From a virus (Duplodnaviria; Heunggongvirae; Uroviricota; Caudoviricetes): DNA of 16,063 nucleotides. A program made the translations under genes and the position numbers. How positions within the stretch are numbered: position 1 is the first letter of the stretch; each line of letters starts with the position of its first letter. This document shows, piece by piece, positions 1 through 14,290 of the stretch. The notes under the pieces were generated by a model that had not been told where the DNA came from, did no database searches, and was given only the letters and a program-made list of their open reading frames with translations. The stretch is taken from the IMG/VR virus record IMGVR_UViG_2609459830_000022; one strand, written 5' to 3'.

Positions 1-1461
1 ATGAAAAAATTACTGCGTCTTTTTTTCCCGCTCTCACTGCGGGTACGTTTTCTGTTGGCAACGGCTGCGGTAGTACTGGTGCTTTCGCTTGCCTACGGAA
101 TGGTCGCGCTGATCGGTTATAGCGTCAGTTTCGATAAAACTACGTTTCGGCTGTTACGTGGCGAGAGCAATCTGTTCTATACCCTTGCGAAGTGGGAAAA
201 CAATAAGTTGCATGTCGAGTTACCCGAAAATATCGACAAGCAAAGCCCCACCATGACGCTAATTTATGATGAGAACGGGCAGCTTTTATGGGCGCAACGT
301 GACGTGCCCTGGCTGATGAAGATGATCCAGCCTGACTGGCTGAAATCGAATGGTTTTCATGAAATTGAAGCGGATGTTAACGATACCAGCCTCTTGCTGA
401 GTGGAGATCATTCGATACAGCAACAGTTGCAGGAAGTGCGGGAAGATGATGACGACGCGGAGATGACCCACTCGGTGGCAGTAAACGTCTACCCGGCAAC
501 ATCGCGGATGCCAAAATTAACCATTGTGGTGGTGGATACCATTCCGGTGGAGCTAAAAAGTTCCTATATGGTCTGGAGCTGGTTTATCTATGTGCTCTCA
601 GCCAATCTGCTGTTAGTGATCCCGCTGCTGTGGGTCGCCGCCTGGTGGAGTTTACGCCCCATCGAAGCCCTGGCAAAAGAAGTCCGCGAACTGGAAGAAC
701 ATAACCGCGAATTGCTCAATCCAGCCACAACGCGAGAACTGACCAGTCTGGTACGAAACCTGAACCGATTGTTAAAAAGTGAACGCGAACGTTACGACAA
801 ATACCGTACGACGCTCACCGACCTGACCCATAGTCTGAAAACGCCACTGGCGGTGCTGCAAAGTACGCTGCGTTCTCTGCGTAGTGAAAAGATGAGCGTC
901 AGTGATGCTGAGCCGGTAATGCTGGAGCAAATCAGCCGCATTTCACAGCAAATTGGCTACTACCTGCATCGTGCCAGTATGCGCGGCGGGACATTGCTCA
1001 GCCGCGAGCTGCATCCGGTCGCCCCACTGCTGGACAATCTCACCTCAGCGCTGAACAAAGTGTATCAACGCAAAGGGGTCAATATCTCTCTCGATATTTC
1101 GCCAGAGATCAGCTTTGTCGGTGAGCAGAACGATTTTGTCGAGGTGATGGGCAACGTGCTGGATAATGCCTGTAAATATTGCCTCGAGTTTGTCGAAATT
1201 TCTGCAAGGCAAACCGACGAGCATCTCTATATTGTGGTCGAGGATGATGGCCCCGGTATTCCATTAAGCAAGCGAGAGGTCATTTTCGACCGTGGTCAAC
1301 GGGTTGATACTTTACGCCCTGGGCAAGGTGTAGGGCTGGCGGTAGCCCGCGAAATCACCGAGCAATATGAGGGTAAAATCGTCGCCGGAGAGAGCATGCT
1401 GGGCGGTGCGCGGATGGAGGTGATTTTTGGTCGCCAGCATTCTGCGCCGAAAGATGAATAA
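1..1461 (+). CDS. phoQ: Sensor histidine kinase PhoQ (complete, 486 aa)
   Basis: Full-length ORF with ATG at 1 and TAA at 1459-1461. Two N-terminal hydrophobic segments flank a periplasmic domain with the acidic patch EDDDDAE, followed by HAMP, the H-box ([10 protein letters not shown]) and a C-terminal ATPase domain (DDGPGIP, GQGVGL). The sequence is recognised as enterobacterial PhoQ. Confidence 0.97.
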
Positions 1462-6929: not shown

Positions 6930-7502
6930 TCACACCCCCGCTAAATCCACCCACCAGCGGCGATTATCCGCACGCGGCATTTTTTCGGGGTGCTGCTCAT
7001 ACAGGGAACGGCGGGCCAGCTCCACGCCGGAATCGGGGTAAGCCGGTACCGATGTAACGGTAATTTCGTACAGTTCCGCCACCAGCACGGTGCGCACGCA
7101 TGGATCTGTTGTGGTATCCCATACATCCTTACGGGAGCGAAAGCCAAAGCTCATCCCCGAGATGTCCCCACGCTTAACCAGTTCGATAACGTCGCGCCCT
7201 GTACTGGTATCCGGTGGGGTCAGTTCAAAGCGTAACCCTGTTTCGTCCTCTTCCAGTTTCAGCGTGCCGGAACGGGTGCGCCCCAGTAACATGCTGTGGT
7301 CATGCTCATACAGGCCGCGAACGTCATTACCCGCCGCAAGCCACTCAGTAAACGCCCCCCGCTGGAATTTTTCGTAAAACTCCCCCCATAGCAGTTCTGA
7401 AAGCTTATCCCAGCGAACAACGTAGCCCGTCAGCGTACCGGCTCCGCTGGTAGTGATTTCCGATGACCGGATTTCCATACTCTTCATAATTTTTTCACCC
7501 AT
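6930..7502 (-). CDS. Prohead protease, HK97 family (S78); true start may be ATG 7487
   Basis: HDHSMLLGRT and GDISGMSFGF motifs characteristic of HK97 prohead protease. The first ATG (7502) lacks a Shine-Dalgarno; the second ATG (7487) has GGTGA upstream. Confidence 0.88.
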   Translation of the reverse strand: MGEKIMKSMEIRSSEITTSGAGTLTGYVVRWDKLSELLWGEFYEKFQRGAFTEWLAAGNDVRGLYEHDHSMLLGRTRSGTLKLEEDETGLRFELTPPDTSTGRDVIELVKRGDISGMSFGFRSRKDVWDTTTDPCVRTVLVAELYEITVTSVPAYPDSGVELARRSLYEQHPEKMPRADNRRWWVDLAGV

Positions 7503-12380: not shown

Positions 12381-12602
12381 TTAATCCCCGTCCGTTGTTT
12401 TTCTTAAAACAGCTTCTGTCACGAAATCAGCATAGTTAGCGGCAATATCAAGAATATTTAGCCCTGTACCTCTGTGCTCATCAGTGCAAAGAAAGAAAAA
12501 AGCCACCCGCATAATTTCAGATATTGACGAAAGCGCATCAGCCGCATCATCAGGAACGCCGGAAAATTCTTGTTTCAGGGAATTAAAACGATCATCACGC
12601 AT
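12381..12602 (-). CDS. Small hypothetical protein (73 aa), paralog of the 77-aa and 80-aa neighbours
   Basis: ATG at 12602 immediately preceded by a G9 homopolymer on the coding strand (C9 at 12605-12613 on plus). Confidence 0.45.
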   Translation of the reverse strand: MRDDRFNSLKQEFSGVPDDAADALSSISEIMRVAFFFLCTDEHRGTGLNILDIAANYADFVTEAVLRKTTDGD

Positions 12603-12817
12603 AACCCCCCCCCATTTTCACAATCAGCAACAAGAATATTTTTAGCGTCATTCAGCGACCGCGTTGCGATGTATCGGATACATTCCAGGGCGAACGTTGT
12701 CCGGTCTTTCTGTTCTTCTCCCTGCGCAAGCTCTGCCGTGCATTCAATATCAATAAGCGCGTGCATCAGCGTAGTGAGCGCGGCGGCGGCTGCGTCCGGT
12801 GTGGTTTTATTGCACAT
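12575..12817 (-). CDS. Small hypothetical protein (80 aa from ATG 12817), third paralog
   Basis: ATG at 12817 preceded by a strong AGGAGG Shine-Dalgarno. Segment TPDAAAAALTTL resembles VPDDAADALSSI of the 73-aa gene. Its C-terminus (GGG) reads through the G9 tract. Confidence 0.4.
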   Translation of the reverse strand: MCNKTTPDAAAAALTTLMHALIDIECTAELAQGEEQKDRTTFALECIRYIATRSLNDAKNILVADCENGGGLCVMIVLIP

Positions 12818-12980
12818 GGCACACCTCCTGACGAATACGGGCGACAAAAATCAGATGTGCGTGCGGCAGCTGTGCACGTGCTTCGCGCTCAGTGGCAGCG
12901 GTAACGGTGAATATTGCAATACTGTCTGTCAGGCACTGCATAAAGCGCCAGACAAAATAAGGGCGTGTGAATACAGCCAT
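12807..12980 (-). CDS. Icd-like small protein (host cell-division-inhibitor-like), copy B, 57 aa
   Basis: ATG at 12980 with TAGGAGCC Shine-Dalgarno. Motif FVWRF ... TAATEREARAQLP ... LIFVARIRQ is shared with copy A. Family assignment is from memory of the conserved motif. Confidence 0.45.
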   Translation of the reverse strand: MAVFTRPYFVWRFMQCLTDSIAIFTVTAATEREARAQLPHAHLIFVARIRQEVCHVQ

Positions 12981-13266
12981 GTGAAAGGCTCCTACAGTAA
13001 TTTTAAGGAGTCTCGCTACTACGCTGTCAAACATGGTGGCGAGACGTAACAGGGTTGACAGACTGGCACTGTAGAGACCAGCGAGCGCAAAGGCTCCCCC
13101 GTTACGCCCCGCCATAATGCGGGTATGGGTAGGTTTACGGACACAAAAAAACCGCATATCGGAATGTAAGCGGCTGTCCGCTACAGTATTCAGGCTGTCA
13201 AACCCGGTCGCCATGTGGGCGACGGGGGAAGCATACAGCCCCGTGATAATTTTTTGCAAGCGGTTT

Positions 13267-13464
13267 TTACGCATGATGTGACCCCTGACGAATACGGGCG
13301 GCAAATACAGCAACACAACCTGACGGGCAACGGCTACGCGCTTCGCGTTCCGTCCAGGCGGTTACGTGGATGATTTGAGATTCTCCGGCACTCAGTGCCA
13401 GAAAACGCCACACAAAGGCCGTTTGTGTGTGTACAAGGTGTGGTATATGATTTACGGCAACCAT
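13267..13464 (-). CDS. Icd-like small protein, copy A, 65 aa
   Basis: ATG at 13464 with TAGGAGCC Shine-Dalgarno. Motif FVWRF ... TAWTEREARSRCP ... AVFAARIRQ. Confidence 0.5.
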   Translation of the reverse strand: MVAVNHIPHLVHTQTAFVWRFLALSAGESQIIHVTAWTEREARSRCPSGCVAVFAARIRQGSHHA

Positions 13465-13537
13465 AACGGCTCCTAGTTTACGTTGTTGGTTAGAAGCCCT
13501 GCGAGTGGTAATGACACTTGCGGGGCTTTGCTTTTTT
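13458..13537 (+). ncRNA. Candidate small cis-antisense RNA overlapping the start and Shine-Dalgarno of Icd-like copy A
   Basis: Plus-strand promoter-like TTGTGT (13423-13428), 17-nt spacer, TATGAT (13446-13451). Plus-strand-specific terminator at 13496-13537. No plus-strand ORF lies in between. Confidence 0.3.
13496..13537 (+). terminator. Rho-independent terminator, plus-strand specific
   Basis: 12-bp stem gccctgcgagtg / cacttgcggggc (two G-U wobbles on the plus RNA, which are C-A and U-C mismatches on the minus RNA), 7-nt loop, then TTTGCTTTTTT. Confidence 0.6.
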
Positions 13538-13553
13538 AAGTGCTCTTGTGTTA

Positions 13554-13600
13554 AGGTGACCACCTAACAATGGAAAGGCTAATTCAATAGGTGACCACTT
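13554..13600. promoter_or_regulatory. Two operator-like palindromes AGGTGACCACCT (13554-13565) and AGGTGACCACTT (13589-13600) in the divergent control region
   Basis: Inverted-repeat arms AGGTG/CACCT with centres 35 bp apart. The second overlaps the Shine-Dalgarno and TTG start of the RHH gene. A TTGACA hexamer on the minus strand (13605-13600) lies between them. Confidence 0.5.
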
Positions 13601-13790
13601 GTCAACAATCAAACGCGATAAAAGCCCTAAAGGGGACGGGCAATCCCCACAATTCAGAATGCGAATTTCTCCAGAGCTAAAAGAGCAATTCGACAAAGAA
13701 GCACAGAGCGACGGCATAAGCCTAGCCAACTGGCTTAAAGAGTTGGGGCGCACTGAACTAAAGCGGCGCGGCATAGAACCCAAAGGATAA
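13599..13790 (+). CDS. Arc/Mnt-like ribbon-helix-helix DNA-binding protein (63 aa, TTG start)
   Basis: SPQFRMRISPELKEQFDKEAQSDGISLANWLKELG matches the beta-strand / helix A / helix B pattern of P22 Arc (PQFNLRWPREVLDLVRKVAEENGRSVNSEIYQRV). Start must be upstream of the PQF strand; TTG at 13599 has AGGTGA 4 nt upstream. Confidence 0.55.
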   Translation: MSTIKRDKSPKGDGQSPQFRMRISPELKEQFDKEAQSDGISLANWLKELGRTELKRRGIEPKG

Positions 13791-13847
13791 AAACTATCAG
13801 CGCCGTGGTGTGAGGTATTACGGCGCATTGCTATGCAGGACAACACA

Positions 13848-14021
13848 ATGACCGATAAAGAATTGACCAAAACATTATCACCGGCACGGAAAAGACGGCG
13901 CAGAAAGATAGAGCATGAATCAGAAAGATTCGCGCCATGTGCTTTTGCCCTTGAGCAATTCCTTAAAGAGTATAGGGAAAAGCGCTCATTGCAGGTATGG
14001 CAACGAACTGAACCAGACTGA
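13848..14021 (+). CDS. Small basic hypothetical protein (57 aa from ATG 13848; ORF track starts at ATG 13833)
   Basis: ORF downstream of the RHH gene in the same plus-strand unit. AGGA 8 nt before ATG 13848. Arg/Lys-rich N-terminal half. No recognised family. Confidence 0.3.
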   Translation: MTDKELTKTLSPARKRRRRKIEHESERFAPCAFALEQFLKEYREKRSLQVWQRTEPD

Positions 14022-14115
14022 TTGCATTGCCCACCAGCCTGATAGCGGCTATCATCCCCGTGCTTATGTTTGGGATCACATACACATAAGGCGCAGCGGG
14101 TTATCTGTTCAGAAA

Positions 14116-14144
14116 GGCGGCTCCATTTCGGGGCCGCTTTTTTT
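14116..14144 (+). terminator. Rho-independent terminator closing the plus-strand RHH unit
   Basis: ggcggctcc-atttc-ggggccgc followed by T7. The stem has one G-U wobble on the plus RNA that is a mismatch on the minus RNA. Confidence 0.7.
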
Positions 14145-14290
14145 ATGCCTGAAAAACCCCAATTTTGTGGTTTTCCAGTCTCACCAGGGCGAACGAATCC
14201 CCGCCCACGTTCTGGCGTATATTCAATCTTCATGGTTATAGCTCTGTGTTCAGATGATTGATGTGTGGCGGCTGCGTGCCGCCAGCGTGA

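Follow-up and report, generated by a model that had tools for sequence, protein, structure and literature searches.

The locus considered here raises the question of what separates, and what controls, two neighboring genes for Icd-like proteins in a 16,063-nucleotide (nt) stretch of Caudoviricetes DNA (IMG/VR record IMGVR_UViG_2609459830_000022), the whole of which is referred to as the window. The two genes, named icdA and icdB in the order in which they are read on the minus strand, flank a spacer of 286 bp. The original prediction regarded them as a tandem duplication with a repeated leader segment, where the spacer has no convincing open reading frame (ORF) and could hold a c4-like RNA or a decayed duplicate. 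Sequence comparison makes it very probable that the spacer is a complete antisense-RNA control cassette of the phage P1 c4 type, which is a known RNA switch placed behind a resident icd gene.

As listed in Table 1, a structure and covariance scan of the spacer gives two matches above the Rfam gathering scores. The C4 antisense RNA (RF01695) is matched over its full length (1–87) at 13119..13032 with 69.1 bits, compared to a gathering score of 45, and the c4-a1b1 element (RF03163) is matched at 13236..13187 with 46.8 bits, in a match that recurs in the relatives. RF03163 describes a pair of hairpins, the second of which carries the a1 site in its loop. The c4 RNA has a minimum free energy of −45.7 kcal/mol and carries a GCCACCA tail at its 3' end, and RNAalifold applied to 14 c4 homologues gives 25 pairs, 9 of which show double-sided compensatory changes, in the long stem and the two internal hairpins. 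The b' sequence of c4, CTACAGT (13074..13068), is exactly complementary to ACTGTAG, which occurs as both b1 and b2, and the a' sequence CTGTCAA is complementary to TTGACAG, which occurs as both a1 and a2. All four sites are found at the positions of the annotated P1 sites, and b2 lies at the conserved offset, where it overlaps the Shine-Dalgarno (SD) sequence TAGGAG of icdB (12994..12989) to give ACTGTAGGAGCC at 12998..12987, with the ATG at 12980.

As in the immI region of P1 and P7, the a1, b1, terminator-like hairpin, c4, a2, b2, and icd follow one another in the same order and with the same spacing, and the P1 immI leader aligns with the window spacer base for base, with approximately 80% column identity over 298 columns. 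The guess of a c4-like RNA in the spacer was therefore correct, and what the spacer holds is not a decayed duplicate but a structured RNA cassette, conserved and homologous to P1 immI. In both systems, b2 covers the SD of icd, and the end of icd overlaps the next cistron. The a sites are identical (TTGACAG/CTGTCAACCC), whereas the b' loop, b1, and b2 have changed together, the b specificity being CACTAAC/GTTAGTG (twice) in P1 and CTACAGT/ACTGTAG (twice) in the window. Upstream of a1/b1, an extra icd gene of the window occupies the place of the C1 operator and P2c4 promoter of P1. The payload following icd is the Ant antirepressor in P1, compared to small unknown ORFs, a DUF4222 gene, and a primase in the window; the icd frame through the leader is closed in P1 and open in the window; and the host of the module is a plasmid prophage in P1 and a satellite in the window. 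The locus is a known system, the P1-type c4/icd switch recognized by Rfam and NCBIfam, in a new arrangement, in which the switch lies behind a resident satellite icd, has a different specificity, forms a swappable cassette, and has a conserved frame running through the RNA gene.

Table 1. Coordinates of features in the icdA–icdB region and its surroundings; positions are those of the window.
Feature	Position	Strand	Description
c4-a1b1 element	13187..13236	minus	Upstream decoy/target; a1 TTGACAG 13201..13195; b1 ACTGTAG 13187..13181, at 3' edge
Terminator-like hairpin and U7	13145..13176	minus	CAGCCGC...GCGGTTTTTTT; closes an IsrK-like short RNA (a1b1 and terminator); homologous hairpin in P1
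c4 antisense RNA gene	13032..13119	minus	b' loop TCTCTACAGTG 13077..13067; a' CTGTCAACCC 13061..13052
Downstream c4 targets	12987..13033	minus	a2 TTGACAG 13030..13024; b2 ACTGTAG 12998..12992
icdA	13464..13267	minus	65 aa, Icd-like; first gene of leftward early operon; NF033153 match
icdA SD	13475..13470	minus	TAGGAG
icdB	12980..12807	minus	57 aa, Icd-like; putative c4-controlled copy in P1 icd position; NF033153 match
Leader ORF	12981..13274	minus	97 codons; ATG 13274..13272 overlaps icdA stop (ATGCGTAA); in frame into icdB
Repeat copy A	13284..13305	minus	icdA codons F-A-A-R-I-R-Q into SD-like AGGGG for ATG at 13274; left boundary of cassette
Repeat copy B	12827..12848	minus	icdB codons F-V-A-R-I-R-Q into SD AGGAGG (12829..12824) for ATG 12817; right boundary of cassette
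Candidate internal promoter	13230..13259	minus	TTGCAA (13259..13254)-18 nt-TATGCT (13235..13230); read by comparison with the P1 record
Intrinsic terminator	13493..13539	plus	15-bp stem (hairpin 13493–13529) then GCTTTTTT; immediately upstream of icdA SD
Candidate operon promoter	13555..13605	minus	−35 TTGACA 13605..13600; two GTGGTCACC repeats at 13598..13590 and 13563..13555
Divergent Arc/RHH-like gene	13599..13790	plus	
Gene matching phrog_21027	13833..14021	plus	
First downstream cistron	12575..12817	minus	80 aa; start overlaps icdB end by 11 nt; at P1 ant1 position

The matching of b', b1, and b2 is found well beyond the window. A DNA-pattern scan of viral contigs with the conserved 3' motif of c4 gave 58 loci, and the loci fetched from viral contigs and E. 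coli relatives contain approximately 70 c4 copies with approximately 24 different b' loops, nearly all of which have an exact complement of 7–10 nt at both the b1 and the b2 positions. The distance from the AACCC motif of c4 is 48–54 nt for b2 and 20–23 nt for a2, and icd is found at +83 to +95 nt from the c4 motif in nearly all of approximately 57 loci. From these sequences, the matched b'/b1/b2 triplet is general among the relatives, for which the evidence of position and covariation is strong. Apart from this, some of the long-ORF variants described below (P0001–P0120) have at b1 a dipeptide unlike that at b' and b2, such as TL with TV or QI with SK; these would be recombinants whose decoy mismatches their own c4 and might serve the c4 of another element. 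In the lineage of the relatives L002, L018, and L036, the second c4 has a b' loop of 12 nt (TTTCCCAATTTG, longer by 1 nt), and the terminator loop of L036 is 1 nt shorter.

A related arrangement is found in Gifsy-1 (isrK-orf45-anrP), SfV (orf37), and Stx phages, where an a1b1 element ending in a terminator (the small RNA IsrK) is followed by a C4 homologue. In Gifsy-1 (L067, NC_010392; 34073–34329), the Rfam C4 model is matched at 34214..34131 on the minus strand with 69 bits, directly after isrK, and the AUGG of c4 is the start of the published orf45 (34210..34073), nearly all of which falls within c4. Because the C4 match directly follows isrK and orf45 starts within it, the processed RNA of approximately 80 nt named orf45'/STnc1160 (PMC4825925) is probably the c4 homologue; the text of that paper contains neither "phage P1" nor "Icd", and "c4" itself is not searchable there. 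Tagging and start-codon mutants showed that orf45 is translated and is required for the translation of the downstream anrP (PMC4825925). The ORF over C4 in Gifsy-1 and lambdoid phages is in the same c4-relative frame as that of the window and is coupled to the next gene. However, the isrK match of the window (RF01394, 13223..13145) reaches 34.1 bits in a relaxed search, its 3' half corresponding to the hairpin and U7 at 13176..13145. The c4-overlapping ORF of the window forms an in-frame fusion with an Icd domain and is coupled to the icd upstream of it, whereas orf45 has no Icd domain and the payload of Gifsy-1 is an antirepressor. In SfV (L065, U82619; 1141–1977), the 278-aa orf37, labeled "immunity region", contains isrK at 1501–1577 and C4 at 1602–1689 and has no Icd domain; it overlaps a YmfL-family gene at that gene's stop and orf38 at its start.

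Both icd genes belong to the NCBIfam family NF033153 (host cell division inhibitor Icd-like), with scores of 64.7 bits for icdA and 53.6 bits for icdB at a curated cutoff of 25, and no Pfam model matches either of them. The two proteins are 46% identical (E 2e-12) and have FVWRF, TEREAR, and ARIRQ in common; P1 Icd aligns with both and is 39% identical to icdA over the alignment. The same octamer, TAGGAGCC, precedes both start codons, at 13475..13468 and 12994..12987. The original prediction is thus borne out with regard to the two ORFs (13267..13464 and 12807..12980, both exact), their common core, and their shared ribosome-binding site, and the profile search and alignment show that the ORFs are kin to each other and to the Icd family, instead of being unrelated. 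A tblastn search with the Icd proteins, which are too short as queries, against a phage collection gave no match for icdB and one for icdA, and a genome-contig profile scan with a 3-sequence Icd alignment confirmed only 1 locus. The sole icdA match is LR881103, "Escherichia phage vB_KppS-Ant" (9379–9549, 59% identity), an induced prophage of 16.5 kb whose size suggests a capsid-forming satellite deposited as a phage.

The segment of approximately 20 bp said to recur in both genes is real. The 17-mer CCTGACGAATACGGGCG occurs exactly twice in the window, at 12827–12843 and 13284–13300 (17/17 exact), compared to 0 matches in 200 shuffles, and the repeat extends to 21/22 nt. On the coding strand, it reads TTT GYC GCC CGT ATT CGT CAG G, which, as the 3' end of both genes, encodes F-(A/V)-A-R-I-R-Q. 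In icdB, it runs into AGGAGG, 6 nt, and the ATG (12817) of the next cistron, with an 11-nt overlap with the icdB end; in icdA, it runs into AGGGG, 7 nt, and the ATG (13274) that overlaps the icdA stop as ATGCGTAA. The repeat is therefore not a leader segment, as had been supposed, but combines the 3' coding end of each gene with the SD for the overlapping cistron that follows; it is at the same time the cassette boundary. A role of the 17-mer as an RNA target or nucleic-acid element was rejected because the synonymous sites of the ARIRQ codons differ among the relatives (GCT, ATC, CGC), and the 17-mer is better explained as conserved codons, a downstream SD, and a recombination joint. In the island of E. 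coli O157:H7 86-24 (L066), the window's promoter region, hairpin, and icdA are found unchanged as far as the 17-mer, after which a tail like that of icdB (GGTGTGCCATG) leads straight into the downstream genes, with no c4 cassette. Because this island differs from the window precisely by the segment between the repeat copies, the 457-bp segment, consisting of the icdA tail, the leader, c4, and the icdB core and bounded by the 17–22-nt ARIRQ repeat, is a presence/absence cassette.

The number of units varies among the relatives, which are close to one another in this region. As in P1, 49 loci, mostly on large contigs, have c4 followed by icd only, whereas an extra icd located 202–397 nt upstream of the c4 motif is found in 8 loci, mostly on contigs of 7–17 kb, and in the window. 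Two c4 genes are present in L016, L023, L036, and L042, and one is present in the window, L001–L004, L032, L040, and L046. The order with two c4 genes is isrK/a1b1, c4#1, icdA', a1b1, c4#2, and icdB, where the a and b specificities differ between the units; unit 1 is of the isrK/lambdoid type, with full-score isrK matches of 62–79 bits there and in Gifsy-1, and unit 2 is of the P1 type. The unit-1 type is matched by 319 phage records, mostly Stx phages and SfV. Compared to these relatives, the window has lost the first c4 and retains only the RNA of the second unit. L023 and L036 keep a truncated icd fragment, "U2", which is identical to the window icdA in its first 28 codons, its SD, and the hairpin upstream. 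Since the relatives carry a second, lambdoid isrK-c4-icd unit, arrays of 1–3 icd and 0–2 c4 genes arise by recombination at shared joints. In a census of E. coli, 925 of 5426 complete genomes match part of 12807–13540 and 52 match at least 80% of it; many of the 925 match only the 5' part of icdA and the hairpin.

Upstream of icdA, the repeats in the candidate operon promoter are likely to be operators for the divergent Arc/RHH-like gene, judging from their arrangement. In the relatives, the promoter segment is swapped wholesale for other sets of TTGAC and repeats with other divergent regulators, and the hairpin and icdA remain constant. The exchange of promoter, operators, and regulator as a block was seen between window positions 13540–13800 and their counterparts in L001–L003, L006, L023, L032, L036, and L046, and the islands have at least 6 different operator repeat sequences, such as GTGGTCACC, GGTAATTACC, GTGTTTCAT/ATGAAACAC, and GTGGCTGAC. 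Such block exchange next to a nearly invariant hairpin, SD, and icdA has the appearance of the pattern of mosaic immunity regions. Control of icdA by the resident c4 was considered and rejected, as the translation initiation region of icdA (AAACTAGGAGCC) is a b2-like remnant minus 2 nt with approximately 4 contiguous pairs by eye and no a2. None of the fetched c4 loops matches this region; icdA may be controlled by a c4 acting in trans from another element. A minus-strand ORF of 247 aa (13490..14233) was judged spurious because it lies opposite two plausible plus-strand genes; it is rich in S, R, and C, and some relatives carry it as "hypothetical protein" or "Icd-like, incomplete", which is likely a propagated misannotation.

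If the two icd genes were a plain, recent tandem duplication, the spacer would be a decayed copy or junk. The shared motifs, the common SD octamer, and the identical stretch of 17–22 nt point in that direction, as do the 2–3 icd copies of the relatives, and L016, L023, L036, and L042 do hold two full leader-c4-icd units. In the window, however, the c4 leader belongs to icdB only, and the nucleotide identity of icdA and icdB outside the repeat is 51%, with the same codon at 12/20 shared residues, compared to 20/21 nt and 6/6 shared residues with the same codon within it. The comparison of copy number leads to the same point: the units of the two-c4 relatives come from different c4 lineages, isrK/lambdoid and P1, and the single-icd island differs precisely by the cassette, whose spacer part is a conserved structured RNA homologous to P1 immI. 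A recent duplication is therefore extremely improbable, and icdA and icdB are best read as old diverged paralogues joined by modular recombination at conserved joints. A second alternative concerns the stem-loop immediately upstream of the icdA SD, which could be a stabilizing or regulatory element in the 5' untranslated region (5' UTR) of the icdA mRNA instead of an antisense terminator. It is located in the predicted 5' UTR, and a second hairpin of the sense RNA would have the SD in its loop and the AUG in its stem. However, the plus-strand RNA folds strongly (z = −4.45) and the sense strand weakly (z = −1.3), and the plus-strand hairpin is more stable in all 5 variants of the relatives (−22 to −28 compared to −16 to −20 kcal/mol, an advantage of 3–12 kcal/mol). 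The stem changes are compensatory, the G-U pairs of the plus strand become A-C mismatches on the minus strand in all 5 variants, and the U-rich tract follows the hairpin on the plus strand only. The 5' UTR element is thus unlikely, and with a terminator on the plus strand, a transcript that ends there must be antisense to the translation start of icdA; if it started near 13458, it would be approximately 80 nt long, with an anti-SD sequence in the hairpin loop. The antisense promoter that had been placed opposite icdA corresponds to a weak by-eye match to sigma-70 (TTGTGT-17-TATGAT, 8/12), which the promoter scan does not report, and the solid signal there is the terminator. Nothing comparable is found at icdB, as the original prediction had noted, which fits differing control of the two copies.

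The leader was also described as having no convincing ORF, whereas 12981..13274 is one frame of 97 codons in phase with icdB, which passes through a1/b1, the terminator, c4, and a2/b2 into icdB and would give a product of 155 aa if translated. This product could be a genuine Icd-like protein in which the N-terminal 98 residues form a functional domain and the Rfam matches are incidental. In relatives, PGAP annotates the 155-aa form as an "Icd-like protein" and its added part as a "long N-terminal extension". Of the 409 proteins in the database that match this form, the best 120 listed are almost all 150–155 aa, and a study of ECOR61 describes the extension as protein. The ECOR61 growth-arrest system needs its Icd-like gene, and a phage protein triggers the growth arrest; by description alone, its locus is of the same kind as that of the window, and its "extension" would be a c4 cassette. 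However, it is only the C-terminal 43 residues that give the 155-aa form its NF033153 match (49.9 bits). The extension is matched by no Pfam or NCBIfam model, and its homologue in P1 is a region whose annotation is non-coding and whose frame is closed. Its variation is confined to residues 30–31, 67–69, and 92–95, which are exactly b1, b', and b2; the b1/b2 dipeptides covary as RNA complementarity predicts (NI/NI, TT/TT, TV/TV, QI/QI, SK/SK), the long ORFs having at least 13 different b2 dipeptides; and the extensions of units 1 and 2 are alike only where the RNA is conserved. A protein domain of this kind is very unlikely, and the leader region is primarily an RNA cassette despite its open frame. 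Because the amino acid sequence of the extension follows RNA logic and not protein conservation, only the act of translation could be under selection. This leads to a tentative extension of the cassette reading, which we consider possible with the balance still against it, namely that the frame is translated and lets induced transcripts past the terminator and the c4 block. A ribosome that has finished icdA would begin anew at AUG 13274, which overlaps the stop, and continue into icdB; alternatively, its start would be the AUG conserved at the 5' end of c4 (13115), which is the one used by Gifsy-1 orf45. In that case, once the operon promoter is derepressed, its transcripts would escape the terminator and the c4 block, and repression would persist on transcripts from the internal promoter, which lack AUG 13274. 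The icdB frame has 0 stops over 330 nt upstream in 21/21 unique satellite-type leaders, the diverged isrK-type unit 1 included, compared to 1–11 stops in each of the other two frames. A random b specificity would bring an in-frame stop 38% of the time, and at least 12 specificities are all open. The overlap ATGCGTAA of stop and start and the in-frame fusion of truncated upstream icd fragments to the KNRL leader in L023, L036, and L031 agree with translation, as do Gifsy-1 orf45, in the same frame over c4, and SfV orf37, which spans isrK and C4 and overlaps both neighboring genes. In the lineage with the longer b' loop, the frame is still open though approximately 33 codons are read in a shifted register, and PGAP labels the L002 gene "frameshifted". 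On the other side, the leaders share ancestry and the open frame may be partly inherited, the sample of the best 120 long-protein clusters is biased towards open frames by construction, and the P1-type module, whose icd frame is closed 11–14 codons upstream, works without such an ORF. The wider proposal, that the c4 gene of E. coli-group phage satellites lies within a translated frame linking the icd genes, that the hypervariable b triplets are many mutually orthogonal immunity types, and that the cassettes are swapped at the ARIRQ joints, is likewise held as a doubtful possibility. As a separate observation, L031 (5–2176) has an open frame of 723 codons that passes two c4 genes and a pair of truncated icd fragments before ending in a full icd; the opening stretch of approximately 1 kb lies opposite real-looking genes and is probably a shadow ORF, and its array part contains the in-frame junctions between icd fragments and KNRL leaders.

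If the spacer is a c4 cassette, the following mechanism can be proposed. In P1, c4 and its target are made from one promoter, and c4 is processed from a precursor by RNase P. In the window, c4 could be made constitutively from the candidate internal promoter, which has 8/12 consensus positions and whose −10 lies where the −10 TATAGT of P1c4 (P51b) is found, directly 5' of a1b1. By homology with P1, the single-stranded a' and the b' hairpin loop of c4 would pair with a2 and b2, and since b2 overlaps the icdB SD, the pairing would block the translation of icdB. Once icdB is no longer translated, translational coupling and polarity would in turn silence the overlapping small ORFs downstream, the DUF4222 gene, and the primase module. 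The a1/b1 element ending in a terminator would be an IsrK-like decoy able to titrate c4. Without an a2 site, and with a b2-like remnant short of 2 nt as its SD region, icdA would escape the resident c4; it would be controlled at the operon promoter with the operators of the divergent RHH-type gene, and probably also by the cis-antisense transcript ending at the plus-strand terminator. The mechanism of P1 immI, on which this scheme is modeled, is summarized in the supplement of PMC2864571.

Several points weigh against this reading of the locus. The c4-a1b1 score barely exceeds its gathering score of 46.7, and the isrK match is below its gathering score of 50. In loop-only duplex energies, the true a and b sites rank high, yet they are no better than shuffled sequences, so that the case for the targets rests on position and covariation instead of energy. 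Both candidate promoters are weak consensus matches missed by the promoter scan. The sequence shows the family membership of the RNA and protein parts, their positional homology to P1, the covariation of b', b1, and b2, and the cassette polymorphism, whereas the promoters, RNA ends, c4 processing, coupling, polarity, and physiological output are predictions. The relatives are close in this region, and the counts of loci are therefore counts of non-independent events. Inhibition of cell division by these Icd-like proteins is a family-based expectation from P1 Icd, with indirect support from the need of the ECOR61 growth-arrest system for its Icd-like gene, and the cf-PICI likeness described below rests on gene content. 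Besides these points, a duplex scan of the whole c4 against the mRNA was set aside as uninformative because it merely unfolds the stems of c4 itself.

With regard to its surroundings, the window carries genes for an integrase, AlpA, a primase, a major head protein, a protease, a portal, and the small and large terminase, and it would be a capsid-encoding phage satellite with a content like that of the phage-inducible chromosomal islands that form capsids (cf-PICIs). The cf-PICI family, with the prototype EcCIEDL933, has int, alpA, primase/rep, capsid, protease, portal, and terminase genes, as does the window, and spans approximately 15 kb (bioRxiv 10.1101/2022.09.08.507074). The family definition also includes the absence of tail genes and helper-phage induction through AlpA. 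That paper discusses only AlpA-dependent induction of cf-PICIs, and neither icd nor antisense occurs in its text. The O157:H7 86-24 island, taken here as the single-icd comparator, has icdA only. The first cistron downstream of icdB heads a run of small ORFs, the DUF4222 gene, and the primase; the ORFs that follow match neither Ant nor any Pfam or NCBIfam model, and their PHROG matches are to families of unknown function (phrog_5146/2512). At the other end of the window (1–1461, plus strand), a 486-aa ORF matches phrog_857, of unknown function, over its full length and has weak kinase-like similarity; it is on the strand opposite the rest of the element and may be cargo or lie outside it. The relative L046 carries a sok antitoxin RNA of the hok/sok type (RF01794, 114 bits) at 7044–7218 on the minus strand.

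On the cassette reading, the operon for replication and packaging in a capsid-forming satellite would be headed by the well-understood RNA immunity switch of P1 c4, which points to a second lock on satellites, acting post-transcriptionally, and possibly to immunity between them. The P1 c4 system, Gifsy-1 IsrK/orf45, and the "immunity region" ORFs of lambdoid phages appear to be one system, which makes translation through the antisense-RNA gene testable as part of the switch, and the matched b'/b1/b2 triplets would form a natural library of orthogonal RNA–RNA specificities. At least 120 protein clusters called "Icd-like protein" (150–155 aa) have an N-terminal part that is a1b1 and c4 RNA sequence; if the reading is true, the database entries for an Icd-like protein that bears a long extension at its N terminus would be an RNA gene read as protein. 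If the frame is indeed translated, the same DNA would supply both the antisense lock and the way past this lock for induced operon transcripts.

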